This document shows positions 24,497 to 38,936 of a stretch of 64,000 bases of DNA, in pieces. The translations under genes were made by a program, and so were the position numbers. Where the stretch lies: positions 1 to 64,000 of the IMG/VR virus record IMGVR_UViG_3300044679_000029; one strand, given 5' to 3'. The notes beneath the pieces were generated by a model, which was not told where the DNA came from, made no database searches, and worked only from the letters and a program-made list of their open reading frames with translations. Each line of letters opens with the position of its first letter. Position 1 is the stretch's first letter. This DNA comes from an uncultured virus (IMG/VR IMGVR_UViG_3300044679_000029) (Duplodnaviria > Heunggongvirae > Uroviricota > Caudoviricetes).

Positions 24497-25154
24497 ATGC
24501 TAACAGTCAGATGTTCAAATAATAGATACGCGCCAGACGCCTGGTACAGTATATATGACAGATCTACTTCTATGTTTGTTTTACAAAAATTCGTTGAGTT
24601 TAATGATGGGAAGGAGTCTGAAGAGTATTGCAAAGCTATAACTGAGATGTGGCAGATGTTATACCCTACTTACAATAACCTACGGAAGGACATCTTTATT
24701 TTAATATGAAAACAATTTATATAGTGGATACGTCCGATTTCGGCGTATATTACAACCTATGGGAACGAGACCACCAGGGCGTCCACAACTTTGCATCACA
24801 CCAAGATATCAACAGTGTCACAGTTAAATTTTTGAATACAAATTCTGCGCACAAATACCGCACATTAATTATGGAAGTACTTACTCGAATTTACGCAAAT
24901 TTTGACGTCGCTGGAGTTATACTTTTAAAATGAAAACATTGTTTTGTACTAATACTAGCCTCTATGTGTTTTGGAATTTATACACCAGACCAGATATACC
25001 ACCATACGCTAACGGTCATTCGGATAACTATGAAGGCTGGATTAGGTTTGAAAGTGACATAGACGCGGAAAGATATTCAACCATATCAAATATCATGTTT
25101 CGTGAGATTTATACTGAGTTATGTACAGACAAACGGCTACTGGTATTTAAATGA
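24497..25154 (+). CDS. three tandem small ORFs (24497-24709, 24706-24933, 24930-25154), probable paralogs
   Basis: ATGA overlaps; shared [VI]xF-x8-Y-x11-Y spacing; AT-rich. Confidence 0.6.
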
Positions 25155-25173
25155 AAATTACGATGGAGTTAAT

Positions 25174-25584
25174 GTGAACGTCAAACAAGTCATAGTAATA
25201 CGAAAAGATCTAAAAATGAGACGCGGTAAGGAAATCGCACAGGGCGCGCACGCAGCTACAGCGTGGATGGTCGGGCCAATGCGTTCAAACCACGAAGAGG
25301 CTGTGTGTTCATCACCCGGCGATCCACCAAGCGGTGTATACCGCACAGATGAAGAGATTCACTGGTTGGTAGCGAGCCAAGCCAAAATCTGTTGCCAAGT
25401 AAGTTCAGAAGCTGAGTTGCTTGCCTTAGACGTCGCAGCGAAGGCGAAGGGCCTGAAATCATTTTTGATTCTAGATGAAGGCCGTACAGAATTCGGCGGT
25501 GTACCGACGTATACGTGCTTGGCTATTGGCCCAGACGAGTCTGAGAAGATTGACGAAGTTACTGGAAAATTGGAGTTGTACTAA
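25174..25584 (+). CDS. pth2: peptidyl-tRNA hydrolase, Pth2 type
   Basis: KQVIVIRKDLKM.RGK..AQ.AHA, Q.KI, DEGRTE, T.LAIGP motifs; GTG start after GGAG. Confidence 0.92.
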   Translation: MNVKQVIVIRKDLKMRRGKEIAQGAHAATAWMVGPMRSNHEEAVCSSPGDPPSGVYRTDEEIHWLVASQAKICCQVSSEAELLALDVAAKAKGLKSFLILDEGRTEFGGVPTYTCLAIGPDESEKIDEVTGKLELY

Positions 25585-32125: not shown

Positions 32126-32214
32126 GACTAATTATAGCCTTGGTCGGATAAGGGTGGAATGTGGTATAAGAGATATGGTATACTGCAATATAACCATTCA
32201 CCAAGGAGAATGCA

Positions 32215-33011
32215 ATGTATTTTACTCTCGTAGCCTGTGTTGCTGTTGGCTGTCTTCCTGTAATCTGTGAGGGCATCAAGTGGTATTGGAAAACCGGTTT
32301 TGCCTATATCTTCGACGGATTCGGCGATTAAGCAATTAATCACCGTTTTATGGTATAAGATATAGACATCTAAACCCCCATTTTCAGCCGGAGACCCCAA
32401 ACATGGAAAAGCTCAAGAAGGCAGTCAACCGAACGGTTCGCGCGGCCCTGTTCACAATAGCGTTTTACACAATCTCATTCGGAGTAGCGTACGCTGTAAC
32501 TGCGGCGTATGACAAACTATTCACCCCCAAATCCAAGGATAAGGAGAGCCGAAAATGATGAAGCTCGCAGATGCAATAGTCAAGACAGCCGTTGACACGT
32601 TGTGTCTGATCGTCGCTGGCGCTTTCGTAATTGCACTCCTTGATTCTGAGGAAACAGAAGAAGATTCTTCTCCAGCCAAGCCGGAGGTTCATTAACATGC
32701 AATACCAGGGTTGGAATGACTACTGGGTCATTCAGAGAAATCGCAAGTTCACGCAGTGGCTAAGCATTCTTCTTGCGGTCATTGCGCTGGTCATGTGCGC
32801 GTTTGTAGCAAAGCGCGCACGCGCAGCAGAACCAGATGCCGCCGTAATGTTGCGACCTTGGCAATTCTGCCGTCGTCGCGTCGACAAGTATTCTCACAGG
32901 CGAAAGTGGTGCTGGAACACCGACATCTGCTATAAATCACGCCAGATCTGCAACCGCTCTTTGACCGAGCAACTGCAATTTGAGCGTAGTACGGGTGCCA
33001 AAACCAGGTGA
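32215..33011 (+). CDS. four small single-TM proteins (32215-32331, 32403-32558, 32555-32695, 32697-33011)
   Basis: Each has an SD and one hydrophobic stretch; TGGTATAAG at 32162 and 32351. Confidence 0.6.
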
Positions 33012-34036
33012 ACCCTCAACCAGGAGTACACTTGAAAAGATCAATACATAGCAGAGCAGAAGTGGATGAAATCATCGTTAGAACGTGTCGCATGGAATCA
33101 CAGGTAGAACTGTTGGTGATCCAAATTGAGGAAGCCAAAATAGAACTACCATTCTTGCCGCCGATGCTACAGGCGAGAACCCTCCAAAATATCATTCAAT
33201 GGCAGAGTGCTATTTCGGATGTAGAGCGAACCATTGCTCGGGCAAAAAAGGCGCTAGTAATGATAATAGCGTCGAACAAGGACGTAGCGCGCGCATGAGT
33301 AGAAGCAGTCGAAAGAAAGAAGATGCGAAGGTTCTTTGTTGGTACGTTCGGAGGCACCTCGGACGGAAGCACGATACCGACCTGTATATAAGAGCGGTAT
33401 TTGCCATCCACGAGTTCAGGGCTAAGTACCCTGAAGTTCGTGTTGAGGAGATAGCTAAGTATGGCGACAAAGCTGGCAGTTAACGTACACGACGACAGCT
33501 GTATTTCCTGCAAGAAGCCCGTCGATCCCTCGAAGCAACGACAGGCTTTCATCCACGATCACTGCGAGCCAATTCAATTTTGGCCAAAGTGGCGGCGAGA
33601 GCAGGTTTTCGTAGACCGCGAGAAGGTTCTCGCCAATCGGGCGAAGAAGCTCGCTTCAGCAGAGGCATCTCGGTAGATGTGGGTGAGGACGCTGTGGGTC
33701 TTTGCGTCCCATCCTGTTTCAAAGAAGTTACTTCTCGTGCTCGGAACTGCGACGAAAAAGGCGCTCGGGTTCTGAACACACTGGTAGCAAACCCCAATCG
33801 GGAAGGCATTTATGGGCAGAAAGCTTTTGAGGTTTCTCGACGAGTTGAACGCAAAATCAGCGGACCGTCTCCCCGAACACACGATAGCAAGATTCATCCG
33901 GGAAGCAGTTGGGACTGATTCACCCGTCGATAATGCAGAGCTTGATGCACAGCTGGATCAGCTGATTGGGCTTGCAAAGCAGGCCCGAAATCAGCTGAAA
34001 TCTAAGCACAAGGAAAACGCAGAATATGAGAATTAG
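33008..34036 (+). other. small hypothetical ORFs (33008-33298, 33295-33483, 33461-33676, 33812-34036)
   Basis: Overlapping start/stop junctions lead into rpsL. Confidence 0.5.
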
Positions 34037-34439
34037 TCAGTTGGTCCGTTTGGGCCGAAAGAAAGTCCACAAGAAGAGCAAGTCGCCTGCATTGATGGGC
34101 AGCCCACAACTCAGCGGGACTGTTCTCCAAAGCAAGGTCATGAAGCCAAAGAAGCCGAATAGCGCAAATCGTCACATCGCGCGCATCCGACTGAGTAATG
34201 GCCGTGAAGTCACCGCTTACTGCGGTGGAGAGAACTCCAACGTGCAAGAGCACGCTCACGTTCTCGTTCGCGGTGGCCGAGTCCCGGATTTGCCGGGTGT
34301 GAAGTATCACATCGTACGCGGCGCTTTGGATTATTCCGGCGCCAATTGCATGAGCAAGTGCACCGCTGAACCCGGCAACGCTGGTGACAAGAAGATGCGT
34401 AACCAGGGCCGGTCGAAGTACGGTGTGAAGGCTCATTAA
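34026..34439 (+). CDS. rpsL: ribosomal protein uS12, divergent
   Basis: [73 protein letters not shown]. Confidence 0.95.
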
Positions 34440-34444
34440 CAGAT

Positions 34445-34499
34445 TGACAAACAAGCGGACCGTAGGCTTAGAAGTAGCCATCGGTCCGCTTGTTTGTCA
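34445..34499 (+). other. perfect 18-bp stem-loop directly after rpsL
   Basis: TGACAAACAAGCGGACCG ... CGGTCCGCTTGTTTGTCA. Confidence 0.75.
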
Positions 34500-34849
34500 T
34501 GTTGTCTTGTGGACACACTAACCAAGGAATAGCAATATGTCAACCAAAGTAATCGAAGCCGAGATAGTACAACCGTCGTAAAGCCGGAGTTGATCGACAA
34601 CCGCGTGACGCGAGGCAAGCTCGGAGCGTTCAAGAACAGCCTCAAGGGTGGCGCCGCGCAGTTGGCACTTCCTCCCGCGAAGAAGAACAAGAAGACTAAG
34701 TAACACCTTGTGGGCACACCAGAAACAAACTAGACCACTTGGGGATGAGTCGGCTAATCCATAGCGTCTATCTCGCATCTGGTCATTTAAAGTGCTGGTC
34801 ACTGCCCCACGTTTTATGCCCCGTCGTAACACCAACCAAGGAGAACACA

Positions 34850-35062
34850 ATGTCGCTAGACACAGAGCCACTCGTATTCGATGTGCTTGGCCCGGATGGC
34901 GAGCCAGTTCAATTCGAAAGAGCACATAGCATTCCGCTGCGCGTCACTGAGAATGAATTGACGTGGCTGTTTGCTGTCGTGAAGAAGCACGATCCAAAAG
35001 GGCAAATGGAGAGCATCCATGAGCAGCTCTTGGCTCAACTCACAAGGTGGTCGAGCCTGTAA
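34850..35062 (+). CDS. hypothetical protein
   Basis: AAGGAG SD before MSLDTEP. Confidence 0.6.
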   Translation: MSLDTEPLVFDVLGPDGEPVQFERAHSIPLRVTENELTWLFAVVKKHDPKGQMESIHEQLLAQLTRWSSL

Positions 35063-35070
35063 TTAAGGTC

Positions 35071-35157
35071 GGGCCTGTGGCGAAACTGGTAGACGCACTG
35101 GACTCAAAATCCGGCGCCCTTCGATAAGGCATCTCGGTTCGAGTCCGAGCGGGCCCA
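35071..35157 (+). tRNA. tRNA-Leu (CAA); CCA end not encoded
   Basis: Acceptor stem GGGCCTG/CGGGCCC-A, D-loop TGGTAGAC, anticodon arm CTGGA-CT CAA AA-TCCGG, long variable arm, T arm GGTTCGAGTCC. Confidence 0.93.
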
Positions 35158-35169
35158 TAAGGAGATAAC

Positions 35170-35466
35170 ATGCAACAAGTTTTCATCGTAATTGGTTCTA
35201 CCGGCGAGTATGACGACCATACTGAATGGACGGTAGCGGCGTACGCGACGGAGATCGAAGCAACTTGGCATGCGCGCAAAGCTGAGATGTGGGCGGATGC
35301 TAATGCGGAACAGTTTAGGGAACATAGTTGCTCTTGTAGTCCACTAGTAAATCCGTACGACGAGGATATGCAAATGGATTACAGCGGCACTAGCTATTCT
35401 GTTCAGGGGCCGCTCGCTATTCTAACGCGGAAACAAACTGAGGACCGCGTTAAGGGAATAACATGA
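35170..35466 (+). CDS. hypothetical phage protein
   Basis: AAGGAG SD; VFIV.GSTGEYDD..EW.V motif. Confidence 0.65.
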   Translation: MQQVFIVIGSTGEYDDHTEWTVAAYATEIEATWHARKAEMWADANAEQFREHSCSCSPLVNPYDEDMQMDYSGTSYSVQGPLAILTRKQTEDRVKGIT

Positions 35467-35599: not shown

Positions 35600-36232
35600 A
35601 TGAAATGGTTCTCAGAAGTAAAACCACTCGGGGACATTCGTCTCCCGGCTTTCATGGGTATCAGAATTCAGATGATGCCCGTGATTCTGGGCTACATGGA
35701 TAGCATTCCGTACGAGCTTCGGCACTTTCGAGAGACCATTCTCAGAATATTCTGCTTGATGGATCAGAAGCACATCGGACAGACTGGCTACTTGACCATC
35801 GATGAGAAGTTCGTCAGATTCGGTCAATTCCACCGGCGGTCGGGTTTGCACGTCGATGCTGGTGGGTGGGGTGGCAGTGGACCAAGGCATCCCGCCGCGA
35901 GCGCAGACAATGGCATGATCGTGACGCAGAGCCACGAGCACACTGTTGCCTACCACCAAGCATTCGAAGGTGAGATTGGTGAAGAGGGTGATTGCAAGTG
36001 TTTGCGTCGACAGGCAATAGCACCGAATCCTCTCAAGGCTTTCAAAGCCTACTGGCTCAGTGGGCTGACAGTCCACGGACACATCTCGCCAATGCTTCAA
36101 GACACAGCACGGCAATTCGTGCGACTGAGTTTGCCGTCTGACGCGCCGTGGTTTGACGGCTACACCGAAAACCCTTTGGGCGTCAAACCTACAGGTCCGG
36201 TGCTACCAAGACGCAAGTTCATGGATTTGTGA
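35600..36232 (+). CDS. 2OG-Fe(II) dioxygenase-like protein
   Basis: HRR.GLHVD (HxD), a distal His (VHGH) and RQFVRL; jelly-roll-like spacing. Confidence 0.6.
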   Translation: MKWFSEVKPLGDIRLPAFMGIRIQMMPVILGYMDSIPYELRHFRETILRIFCLMDQKHIGQTGYLTIDEKFVRFGQFHRRSGLHVDAGGWGGSGPRHPAASADNGMIVTQSHEHTVAYHQAFEGEIGEEGDCKCLRRQAIAPNPLKAFKAYWLSGLTVHGHISPMLQDTARQFVRLSLPSDAPWFDGYTENPLGVKPTGPVLPRRKFMDL

Positions 36233-36261
36233 TTTCGGGTCAAAATCTGGTATAAGATATT

Positions 36262-36911
36262 GATCCGCGAATCATCGCTTCGCGATGCATGAGGCGGTAG
36301 ATCAATCCTGGTCTGGATAGTTCCAGGACCTTGGGTCTATCGCCTCACGTTAACTCTGGGCCTGTAAGCGTGTGTGCCAGCACAGTATGAGAACATCCGG
36401 TCGTTACAGCCGGTTAGGGACCAGTGACCCCCGGACATTGGTCCGGGGATAGGCCTGATGTAACCTCCGTCGCTGGCTTGGCGACGAACCTGAAATGCGT
36501 GCTCATTTGTGGGCCGCTGATTGTAAGGGACAAGTCAAACCACTTGGCTGCGGGTCGCCACCGCGGTGTTTCGAGAATTATAAGTGGGCCAGGGTTTCTC
36601 GTTACCTGGCACTTTTCAAACTGCCCGGCCGAAACGAGACCGGTTTAAAGTGTTCGCGAACTTCAGATCAGTTGGGACTGAACTAGTTCCCAGGTCAAGT
36701 CGCGATCTAAAAATCTCCTACAAAAAGCCCGATCCTGCAAGACCGGGTAATAAAAAGGAGTAGCCTTGCAGGGCGTTTAACGGGATGACGTAAATCGGGC
36801 GCGCGAGGCTGATACCTTGCGATGCTGACAGAATACGAAAACTCTCGTCAGGTTTGTGCTCTGGACCCATGGGTGGACGCCGGGGCACAAACCTGCTGTG
36901 TTCTTCGCAGC
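36262..36911 (+). ncRNA. putative large structured non-coding RNA (~650 nt)
   Basis: Starts just after TGGTATAAG (36248); no credible ORF; at least 12 hairpins with G-U pairs on the plus strand. Confidence 0.65.
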
Positions 36912-36941
36912 ACAAACCCGTAGCAAGAAAGAGGCAATCAC

Positions 36942-37127
36942 ATGAGAACCGTTGAGTACTACTCCAAACTGAACGCGATCTGTGCTGAGTACTGCCCCAA
37001 GCTGGACGCGTGCGACGCTGAGTCCTGCTCCAAACTGAACGCGCTCAAAGCCGAGTTCAAGTCCAAGCTGGACGCGCTCGACGCTGAGTCCCACCTCAAC
37101 CAGCCCGCCGTCAGCACAAACCCGTAG
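36942..37127 (+). CDS. 11-residue-repeat mini-protein 1 (61 aa)
   Basis: GAGG SD in the linker; SKLnAl.AEy. repeats. Confidence 0.65.
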   Translation: MRTVEYYSKLNAICAEYCPKLDACDAESCSKLNALKAEFKSKLDALDAESHLNQPAVSTNP

Positions 37128-37145
37128 CAAGAAAGAGGCAATCAC

Positions 37146-37382
37146 ATGAGAACCGTTGACAAATTCAATTCCAATGAGTACTGCTCCAAGCTGGACGCGA
37201 TCAATGCTGAGCGCGACTCCAAGCTGGACGCGATCAATGCTGAGTACTTCTCCAAGCTGGACGCGATCAATGCTGAGCGCGACTCCAAGCTGGACGCGAT
37301 CAGTGCTGAGCGCGACTCCAAGCTGGACGCGCTCGACGCTGAGTACCACCTCAACGAGCCCGCCGTCAGCACAAACCCGTAG
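37146..37382 (+). CDS. 11-residue-repeat mini-protein 2 (78 aa)
   Basis: SKLDAINAERD repeats. Confidence 0.65.
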   Translation: MRTVDKFNSNEYCSKLDAINAERDSKLDAINAEYFSKLDAINAERDSKLDAISAERDSKLDALDAEYHLNEPAVSTNP

Positions 37383-37400
37383 CAAGAAAGAGGCAATCAC

Positions 37401-37817
37401 ATGAAAACCTTTGTTGACGAAATCAAGTCCAAGATGAACGCGTTCAGTGCTGAGTACTTCTCCAAGCTGGACGCGCGCGACGCTGAGTACAAGTCCAGGC
37501 TGGACGCGATCAGTGCTGAGTACAAGTCCAAGGCTGAGTTCAAGTCCAAGCGGAACGCGATCAATGCTGCGTACGACTCCAAGCGGAACGCGATCAACGC
37601 TGGGTACTTCTCCAAGCTGAACGCGTTCAGAGCCGAGTGCAGGTCCAAGCTGAACGCGCTCAGTGCTGAGTACGACTCCAAGCTGAACGCGATCAACGCT
37701 GGGTACTTCTCCAAGCTGAACGCGTTCAGAGCCGAGTGCAGGTCCAAGCTGAACGCGCTCAGTGCTGAGTACTTCCCCAAGCTGGAAGCGCTCATTGCTG
37801 AGTACCACCTCAACTAG
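37401..37817 (+). CDS. 11-residue-repeat mini-protein 3 (138 aa)
   Basis: About 11 repeat units. Confidence 0.65.
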   Translation: MKTFVDEIKSKMNAFSAEYFSKLDARDAEYKSRLDAISAEYKSKAEFKSKRNAINAAYDSKRNAINAGYFSKLNAFRAECRSKLNALSAEYDSKLNAINAGYFSKLNAFRAECRSKLNALSAEYFPKLEALIAEYHLN

Positions 37818-37859
37818 CCCGCCGTCAGCACAAACCCGTAGCAAGAAAGAGGCAATCAC

Positions 37860-38024
37860 ATGAGAACCGTTGACAAATTCAATTCCAAGCTGTACGCGCT
37901 CGGTGCTGAGTACGACTCCAAGCTGTACGCGATCAACGCTGAGTACAGATCCAAGCTGAACGCGATCAATGCTGAGTACTTATCCAAGCTGAAAGCGCTC
38001 GACGCTGAGTCCCACCTCAACTAG
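37860..38024 (+). CDS. 11-residue-repeat mini-protein 4 (54 aa); not in ORF track
   Basis: MRTVDKFNSKLYALGAEYDSKLYAINAEYRSKLNAINAEYLSKLKALDAESHLN*. Confidence 0.65.
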   Translation: MRTVDKFNSKLYALGAEYDSKLYAINAEYRSKLNAINAEYLSKLKALDAESHLN

Positions 38025-38066
38025 CCCGCCGTCAGCACAAACCCGTAGCAAGAAAGAGGCAATCAC

Positions 38067-38348
38067 ATGAGAACCGTTGACAAATTCAATTCCAAACTGA
38101 ACGCGATCAGTGCTGAGTCCAGGATAAACGCGATCAGTGCTGAGTACGACTCCGAGCTGAACGCGATCAATGCTGAGTACTGCTCCAAGATGAACGCGCT
38201 CAGTGCTGAGTACTGCTCCGAGCTGGACGCGTGCGACGCTGGTCACTGCTCCAAACTGAACGCGCTCAAAGCCGAGCTCAAGTCCGAGCTGGACGCGCTC
38301 GACGCTGAGTCCCACCTCAACCAGCCCGCCGTCAGCACAAACCCGTAG
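38067..38348 (+). CDS. 11-residue-repeat mini-protein 5 (93 aa)
   Basis: Same unit; its 3' part closely matches mini-protein 1. Confidence 0.65.
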   Translation: MRTVDKFNSKLNAISAESRINAISAEYDSELNAINAEYCSKMNALSAEYCSELDACDAGHCSKLNALKAELKSELDALDAESHLNQPAVSTNP

Positions 38349-38362
38349 CTCAAACCGGAGGT

Positions 38363-38572
38363 GTGCAAGTGATAATCAAGCCGAATCAGTTGACTCCCAT
38401 CCCAGAGGGCATCAAGATCAAGAAGATTTCGGCAGGCGAAACCAGCGGAGTCTTCTTTGTGATCAGCCACATCACAAGGTTCATGTCGCGGGAAAACAAG
38501 AATTCGCGGCGTAAGCCAGACCAGTATCAGCCCAGAAATCTCTCGGGCTTCGATCCGGTCGAGAGCGAATAA
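38363..38572 (+). CDS. hypothetical basic protein
   Basis: GGAGG SD precedes GTG codons. Confidence 0.45.
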   Translation: MQVIIKPNQLTPIPEGIKIKKISAGETSGVFFVISHITRFMSRENKNSRRKPDQYQPRNLSGFDPVESE

Positions 38573-38724
38573 TCTTCTAGACTTTCTCCCGGGCTAAGGT
38601 CATGCCTGGTAATGGCCCTAATTAGTCAATGCGGGCTAGAAAGCGGGAATCCCATGAAGTGGACCTAGCGATCCGACAATCTAATGCATAGATTAGCACT
38701 AGAATAACTCTGAGAAAACTGTGA

Positions 38725-38837
38725 GCCCACAAGAAGATATCTTCTTGTATATACGTTTATAACCCCCCAATCTGACAGAAATTGTCGGAACGGCAATGGG
38801 AATAAACGTGTATACGTGAGGATATCTTCTTGTGGGC
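38725..38837. repeat. long imperfect inverted repeat containing a 20-bp palindrome
   Basis: GCCCACAAGAAGATATC...GATATCTTCTTGTGGGC arms; ACAAGAAGATATCTTCTTGT palindrome at 38729-38748. Confidence 0.85.
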
Positions 38838-38936
38838 AATTAAGATTTGTCGGTTTTTAGGTTGACTTCCTATAACATCTGAATTATACTAGACATGATT
38901 AGCGGAACTATAATTTAGTACTAGGAAGACAAACTA

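Follow-up and report, generated by a model that had tools for sequence, protein, structure and literature searches.

The window analysed here, the first 64 kb of one linear contig of 117,101 bp from an uncultured virus (IMG/VR virus record IMGVR_UViG_3300044679_000029, CheckV completeness 65%), contains a real, intact and phage-owned gene for uS12, the ribosomal protein encoded by rpsL in bacteria. uS12 lies at the decoding centre of the ribosome, where it helps to set translational accuracy and holds the classic sites of streptomycin resistance. Sequence comparison places the window protein in a uS12 lineage that is carried by phage genomes and is marked by an insertion near the C terminus and by faster change than is seen in cellular uS12. 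The gene and its relevant parts are as follows:

34026..34439, plus strand: rpsL-like gene for a 137-amino-acid (aa) bacterial-type uS12, assigned to a phage-specific lineage (TIGR00981, PF00164, AlphaFold, Foldseek and tree)
34010..34015, plus strand: putative Shine-Dalgarno-like AAGGAA, 10 nucleotides (nt) 5' of the uS12 ATG, picked out by reading the sequence
34146..34175, plus strand: decoding loop, residues 41-50, with PKKPNSA at 41-47 followed by N48, R49 and H50
34284..34286, plus strand: codon CCG for Pro87, at the position of Escherichia coli K88 (K87 in the mature protein), located by sequence and alignment offset
34332..34397, plus strand: variable C-terminal loop, residues 103-124, holding a 16-aa insertion with Cys108 and Cys112, located by motif spacing

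The open reading frame (ORF) is intact from its ATG start to its TAA stop. Like bacterial RpsL, the phage protein scores above the curated cutoff of TIGR00981 rpsL_bact (150.6 bits against a cutoff of 112.95) and has an oligonucleotide/oligosaccharide-binding (OB) fold with an N-terminal tail; it also matches Pfam PF00164 (E 7.9e-29, 100 bits, threshold 22.3), and it scores far under the cutoffs of the archaeal and eukaryotic uS12 models. The AlphaFold model, built with 38 sequences, has a mean predicted local distance difference test (pLDDT) score of 75.9, with values of 82-93 in the blocks of the OB-fold core and low confidence over the poorly defined residues ~105-137; the core and the extended N-terminal tail can be superposed on solved uS12 structures. 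The best 50 Foldseek matches of this model in the PDB are all uS12 chains, from bacterial and organellar ribosomes (E 2e-11 to 1e-9; template modelling scores of 0.54-0.62, normalised to query length). A likeness to mitochondrial S12, which the preliminary description of this DNA saw in a short motif, is not supported over the whole protein, which scores only 101-106 bits with solved uS12m chains against 126 bits with chloroplast and Thermus chains.

The genome around the gene is that of a phage. It encodes a large terminase subunit (TerL; phrog_675, 4.4e-61), a family A DNA polymerase (phrog_17, 2.7e-104), a helicase, an exonuclease, and a multisubunit RNA polymerase with a 1455-aa subunit that shares 34-35% identity, across 95-99% of its length, with proteins of Salmonella phage Arash and Vibrio phages D181, D148 and D69. 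Pfam families were tallied for 132 ORFs (the ORFs at 62978-64099 and 81724-84489, which span locus borders, are left out), and the 25 listed of 41 include terminase, lysozyme, two sigma-70-like proteins, peptide deformylase, Pth2, a T4-type RNA ligase and ThyX; the other 16 may include more genes for translation. Bacterial rpsL is the first gene of the str operon (rpsL-rpsG-fusA-tuf), and rpsG lies directly behind it in 80/80 of the best bacterial genome loci; the phage gene, unlike this arrangement, stands in phage context without rpsG or fusA, and a tblastn search with queries from a bacterial locus found no S7 or EF-G match anywhere in the 117,101 bp. The earlier account of an intact rpsL among phage genes and outside any str operon is therefore borne out.

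Public sequencing runs that hold this DNA come from peat, freshwater and lake metagenomes. A contig of 1643 nt from run X3 covers 32567-34209 and one of 1270 nt from run X2 covers 34037-35306, both with 0 differences, and a contig of 457 nt from run X5 covers 33915-34371 with 3 differences. Because these contigs, from three other samples, run across both junctions of the gene, a chimeric assembly at this point is excluded, a possibility that the preliminary description had raised. Two of the X5 differences change Asn72 to Gly, which is the residue of the related proteins P0002, P0004 and P0006, and this is the sole variant codon seen in the other samples.

Relatives of the window protein were sought in protein, genome, metagenome and virus collections. 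The closest in a collection of 5.8 billion proteins are P0002 (88% identity), P0004 (72%, on a 98-kb contig), P0003 (70%), P0006 (65%) and P0007 (64%). The best cellular uS12 found in the genome and metagenome scans is ~59% identical over its full length, among the best 80 loci kept from at least 592 metagenome and at least 600 genome stretches; that P0002-P0004 were not returned by these scans is uninformative. With at most ~59% identity to any cellular uS12 among those loci, and with its 16-aa loop insertion, the phage protein is unlike bacterial RpsL, and recent capture from a host is excluded because cellular uS12 reaches only ~59% whereas relatives in phage context reach 88%. The top cellular identities are spread over groups of the Planctomycetes-Verrucomicrobia-Chlamydiae (PVC) assemblage (Lentisphaerota, Verrucomicrobiota, Planctomycetota), Omnitrophota and Gemmatimonadota.

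Of 14 loci that a scan of IMG/VR yielded, seven (L001-L005, L008 and L009) are stand-alone uS12 genes on contigs of 11 to 442 kb, L003 being the one on 442 kb. Next to L001, L005, L008 and L009 lie genes that match phage families; two selected flanking proteins, from L003 and L004, had no match in the same phage-family comparison. The remaining loci were set aside: four (L006, L007, L010 and L012) belong to ordinary str operons of hosts, two (L011 and L013) are not long enough for a judgement, and L014 is a weak partial match. In INPHARED, tblastn gave 15 matches, all below 54% identity; those records that are annotated, or that are long and look bacterial, appear to derive from str operons of hosts, and none came from the cultured kin phages Arash, D181, D148 and D69. 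One further candidate is L065, a metagenome contig on which no S7 lies within 2.5 kb; its place in the tree is with Krumholzibacteriota and Fibrobacterota, its motif spacing is canonical, and it was treated as cellular.

The tree of 144 rows comprises 109 cellular or str-operon rows and a phage group of 35 (the window protein, the seven stand-alone IMG/VR genes and 27 insertion-bearing proteins of unknown context), and a single branch separates the two sets (Shimodaira-Hasegawa-like approximate likelihood ratio test 99, branch length 0.42). The phage rows join the cellular tree by this one branch only. The window copy lies in the most derived subclade, which is distinguished by SANRH, YCGGENS, RVPDLPG and the longest loop, with Cys. 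The preliminary description had named relaxed selection and absence from all relatives as grounds for doubting the gene; this doubt is not borne out by close relatives, which carry it with a conserved core.

The insertion is a mark of the lineage. The spacing from PGV.YH..RG to RS.YG is 29 residues in the window protein and 13 in 75 of 80 bacterial loci; two of the remaining five, one of them a Lentisphaerales genome, have spacings of 18 and 21, and the other three missed the motif. In each of the seven stand-alone viral genes there is an insertion at this site, with spacings of 19-23, and in all eight phage-group members of known context, the window included, it falls between the RGA.D..G segment and RNQ.RSKYG. 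The preliminary description had noted a Cys-containing insertion of ~14 aa before RNQGRSKYG; the insertion and its cysteines stand, and its length is corrected to 16 aa. Within the subclade, over the core (residues 28-102), the window protein is identical to P0002 at 71/75 positions and to P0004 at 63/75, whereas over the loop (residues 103-124) the corresponding figures are 14/22 and 2/22, a pattern that points to constraint on the body and freedom in a surface loop. The cysteines of this loop are not conserved, and the loop of P0004 has none.

Residue columns were counted in the 35 phage-group rows and the 109 cellular rows, and they support the earlier statement that changes lie at and beside decoding-centre positions. 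Like bacterial RpsL, the phage protein keeps the PKKPNSA loop, H76, R85, D88, P90 and the C-terminal RSKYG; PKKPNSA, R49, H76, D88 and P90 are all present in the window protein, are invariant in 35/35 phage-group rows and occur in at least 108/109 cellular rows. D88, L89, P90 and G91 are retained, so that both PKKPNSA and DLPG are kept as first described, and Asp88 is a site of methylthiolation in E. coli. Unlike bacterial RpsL, the window protein carries six changes at residues fixed in 109/109 cellular rows (C33V, V36S, K50H, I66C, H71S and L73V), together with T40K (Thr in 107/109), L48N (Leu in 103/109) and K88P. Cys66 is thus an unusual replacement of an otherwise invariant Ile, and L48N and K50H give the sequence SANRH where cellular uS12 reads SALRK, in agreement with the ANRH for ALRK first reported.

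The last of these changes needs qualification. Phage Pro87 aligns with E. coli K88 when the start Met is counted (mature K87; the alignments supply the offset of one), and this position is a classic streptomycin-resistance site. The window protein indeed reads RVPDLPG, with Pro87 in place of the Lys of RVKDLPG, as the preliminary description had it. The phage-group column contains K in 25 rows, P in nine and H in one, and the cellular column contains K in 89, R in 14 and other residues in six, so that 20/109 cellular rows are non-Lys; Pro itself can be read directly from the sequences of L096, a Verrucomicrobiota genome, and P0052, on a contig of 1.6 Mb. Since the position varies in cells, Lys does not strictly define the uS12 family, and the counts indicate that K88P is a trait of a subclade, neither shared by the whole phage lineage nor unique to phages. 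The second classic streptomycin site, K42, is retained.

The gene is a mobile accessory of this phage rather than part of its core, because distant kin phages lack it and its composition is an outlier. Its G+C content at third codon positions (GC3) is 0.65, against 0.434 (standard deviation 0.064) for 55 long ORFs of the genome, giving z 3.4; GC3 is also high in the neighbouring genes of its island. Among IMG/VR records related through TerL (38-43% identity) uS12 was found in 0/5, including 0/2 complete genomes (190 and 179 kb), and no flanking genes shared between the window and the other uS12-carrying phages were found.

The explanation of the whole that we hold somewhat better than even is that the gene encodes a functional, phage-owned uS12 that is built into the 30S subunit and modifies decoding. 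The protein would enter 30S subunits during infection in place of host uS12, by means of its conserved N-terminal tail, OB-fold core and decoding loops. The changes that flank the PNSA loop (T40K, L48N and K50H) and those that lie in the GEGHNLQEH loop (G70N, H71S and L73V), together with K88P, would then produce a modified decoding centre, and ribosomes so modified would be expected to shift the accuracy or speed of decoding, or the response to factors or aminoglycosides, in favour of the phage. Replacement within the 30S subunit is favoured because residues that are meaningful only at the decoding centre are conserved along with the N-terminal tail, and because uS12 is a late-binding 30S assembly protein according to PMC10931766. 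Incorporation and the change in decoding are both inferred from the conserved and altered residues.

Several points weigh against this explanation or against its foundations. uS12 is a buried core protein that is not known to be exchangeable, so it could enter only through new assembly of 30S subunits during infection, and many phages shut down such assembly. K88P is not an invention of phages and need not be a phage adaptation, because the same change from K to P occurs in cellular uS12. Genomic context is known for only eight of the 35 members of the phage group; when the insertion columns are removed, the same 35/109 split has a support of 87 and is not starred; and the viral uS12 loci for which DNA is available, at 53-61% identity, are too diverged for an estimate of the ratio of nonsynonymous to synonymous substitution rates (dN/dS). 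A contig from an RNA library covers 33716-34193 and gives only a weak hint of uS12 expression, because it may derive from DNA carry-over; in RNA run X12 parts of the stretch are uncovered, and no conclusion was drawn from it.

An alternative that we regard as unlikely, with a modest claim to attention, is that the protein works off the ribosome as an RNA chaperone, acting on a non-coding RNA (ncRNA), introns or tRNAs, or that it speeds or diverts assembly of host 30S subunits without staying in them. Such a role has precedent, uS12 being described in PMC10931766 as promoting splicing of phage T4 group I introns in vitro and as a chaperone on nascent 16S rRNA, and the gene sits in an island with a tRNA and near an ncRNA locus with a transcript depth of 105 against ~5 for its neighbours. 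A general chaperone would not, however, require the PNSA loop, H76, D88 and P90 to be invariant in 35/35 rows; no intron of group I or II appears in the Rfam scan of the 117 kb, and the other phage uS12 loci do not share the ncRNA neighbourhood.

Quite improbable, in our estimate, is a device for resistance or deception, in which the protein counters aminoglycosides, a host defence or a toxin at the decoding centre, or serves as a sink for a host factor that binds uS12. Pro at the K88 position and the alteration of residues fixed in 109/109 cellular rows by K50H and H71S are what such a device might display. Resistance through K88 cannot explain the lineage as a whole, because Pro occurs in only 9/35 phage-group rows while 25 keep Lys, and the other classic site, K42, is kept; moreover, streptomycin sensitivity is dominant in cells with mixed ribosomes, so that partial replacement would protect poorly. 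No defence system is known to target uS12.

The remaining alternative, that the gene is a passenger or an artefact (a recent host capture, a decaying copy or mis-assembled host DNA), is suggested by the GC3 outlier (z 3.4) and by kin phages without the gene, and is largely refuted and very improbable, given contigs of three other samples across both junctions, an identity of ~59% to the nearest cellular uS12 against 88% to relatives in phage context, and an intact frame with functional residues kept across a deep clade.

Incorporation into the 30S subunit, the explanation that we prefer, can be extended to a joint reading that we offer tentatively, as a whole unlikely to hold in every part. 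A uS12 lineage confined to phages would build re-tuned, 'phage-edition' ribosomes and would move as a cassette between unrelated large phages; K50H, H71S, L73V, K88P and the Cys-containing loop would alter accuracy and the response to aminoglycosides and factors; and a protein resembling Fe(II)/2-oxoglutarate (2OG) oxygenases, encoded in the same island, might modify the proline of the decoding loop. Among eukaryotes, OGFOD1/Tpa1 modifies the decoding-loop proline of uS12.

Previously described virus-encoded ribosomal proteins offer a comparison. The main text of Mizuno et al. 2019 (PMC6375957) names bS21, bL12, bL9, bL31, bL33, bS6, uS9 and uS15, of 14 proteins in all, and stresses dynamic, exchangeable surface proteins; the text of Al-Shayeb et al. 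2020 (PMC7162821) names phage S1, S4, S21 and L7/L12; and that of a 2026 jumbophage paper (PMC13573597) names L7/L12 only. There are 0 occurrences of uS12, S12 or rpsL in the main text of Mizuno et al. 2019 (PMC6375957), the supplementary tables of which might list uS12; the single 'S12' in the 2017 Mizuno preprint is a figure number, and the two 'S12' strings in Al-Shayeb et al. 2020 (PMC7162821) are both in reference DOIs. In the full-text literature on uS12 or S12 with phage or virus, a scope that covers article text, we found nothing on a phage uS12. The earlier remark that a core decoding protein is unexpected among phage ribosomal proteins thus agrees with the main texts of PMC6375957 and PMC7162821, which name none. 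The window gene resembles the genes of Mizuno and Al-Shayeb in being a single ribosomal gene on a phage, derived from bacteria, intact, and presumed to replace a host protein, and it is unlike Mizuno's exchangeable surface proteins in encoding a core protein of the decoding centre.

These features suggest that the changes some phages make to the host ribosome extend to its core and are not confined to loosely attached proteins at its surface. If a conserved, phage-specific and mobile uS12 lineage is truly at hand, phages would be able to reach the functional core of the ribosome, and the lineage would supply natural variants at positions that are invariant in the sampled cellular sequences. 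Such a lineage raises the questions of whether a late-binding core protein can be replaced during infection and of how the substitutions and the loop affect accuracy, speed and drug response.

The uS12 gene lies in an island of plus-strand features, as follows:

32162..32170, plus strand: TGGTATAAG motif, a candidate promoter heading the uS12 island, with a second copy at 32351-32359 (motif count)
143, 377, 24146, 24480, 32162, 32351, 36248 and 54135 (starts in the window), all plus strand: copies of TGGTATAAG (exact match)
33812..34036, plus strand: orphan ORF of 74 aa, the end of which overlaps the rpsL start by 11 nt (ORF list)
34446..34498, plus strand: long hairpin (18-bp stem) that begins 7 nt beyond the uS12 stop (RNA fold)
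35071..35157, plus strand: tRNA-Leu(CAA), 630 nt downstream of uS12 in the same island (ARAGORN; Rfam RF00005, 53 bits)
35600..36232, plus strand: gene for a 210-aa Fe(II)/2OG oxygenase-like protein in the same island (predicted structure)

The eight exact copies of TGGTATAAG in the window, all on the plus strand, compare with 0.39 expected, and 0/100 shuffles reach eight; the motif is a candidate phage promoter heading plus-strand islands. Strain-level variation is seen upstream of rpsL, where one contig of the X2 run has 178 extra letters between 32995 and 32996, an indel within the island. Immediately behind rpsL, folding of 34430-34520 revealed a hairpin absent from a simple terminator scan (-45.4 kcal/mol, z -8.1; 0/200 shuffles as stable), which is likely to be a terminator or an RNA-stabilising element.

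The 74-aa ORF in front of uS12 matches no Pfam or PHROG family and has one homologue in the 5.8 billion proteins, P0242, which is 91% identical and is encoded on a contig of 929 bp; the contig that encodes P0002 is equally long. In four of the seven stand-alone viral loci a different small ORF overlaps the uS12 start; these 'partner' ORFs form a family of 22-35% identity with a V.N motif followed by a helix-like stretch:

L003, 9670-10026: partner ORF overlapping the uS12 start
L004, 9720-10013: partner ORF overlapping the uS12 start
L008, 9757-10029: partner ORF overlapping the uS12 start
L001, 2093-2362: partner ORF overlapping the uS12 start

The 74-aa ORF was rejected as a member of this family (hhalign probability 0.3% against partner profile A3, built from L001, L003, L004 and L008), and a search of the genome with the partner profile, at E up to 1, found no match. 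L002, L005 and L009 also lack a partner ORF when inspected by eye. Because the upstream ORF of the window is unrelated to the family, the partner is not universal among phage uS12 loci. The window copy thus shares its branch and its C-terminal insertion with the stand-alone IMG/VR genes, and differs in its place in the most derived subclade and in lacking the partner gene that L001, L003, L004 and L008 have.

Searches by tblastn with the 210-aa protein, with the 74-aa ORF and with the remaining small ORFs of the island gave no match in L001-L009, the only matches of that comparison being a DNA polymerase (L001) and a helicase (L008). A Pfam and PDB sequence search with the 210-aa protein returned nothing, and structure comparison alone gave a match. 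Its model has a pLDDT of 91, and the 50 entries listed by VIA-align, with Z 8.1-9.4 over 155-177 residues, are without exception Fe(II)/2OG oxygenases; H84 and D86, which form an H-x-D motif, are invariant in 36 homologues and H159 is nearly so. A link between this gene and uS12 is speculative. The family is widespread and unannotated, with 182 homologues, many of them on contigs of 100-550 kb.

Downstream of the oxygenase-like gene, and starting 1.8 kb downstream of uS12, a non-coding locus extends over 36248-38850. It matches no Rfam family, and it is linked to uS12 by position only. A contig of the X12 metatranscriptome at 36272-36499 has a depth of 105, against ~5 for neighbouring phage contigs, which fits a strongly expressed phage ncRNA that starts just after the TGGTATAAG copy at 36248.

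The Rfam scan of the 117 kb at gathering thresholds returned only the tRNA-Leu. ARAGORN calls two tRNAs in the genome, tRNA-Leu(CAA) and tRNA-Ile(UAU); the latter, at genome positions 90379-90451 (L176), lies outside the window and is absent from the Rfam scan. The phage carries other genes related to translation, namely a peptide deformylase (PF01327, 1.8e-43), a T4-type RNA ligase and a Pth2-type peptidyl-tRNA hydrolase (PF01981, 7.5e-30), the last of which is placed in the window as follows:

25102-25584: Pth2-type peptidyl-tRNA hydrolase (PF01981)

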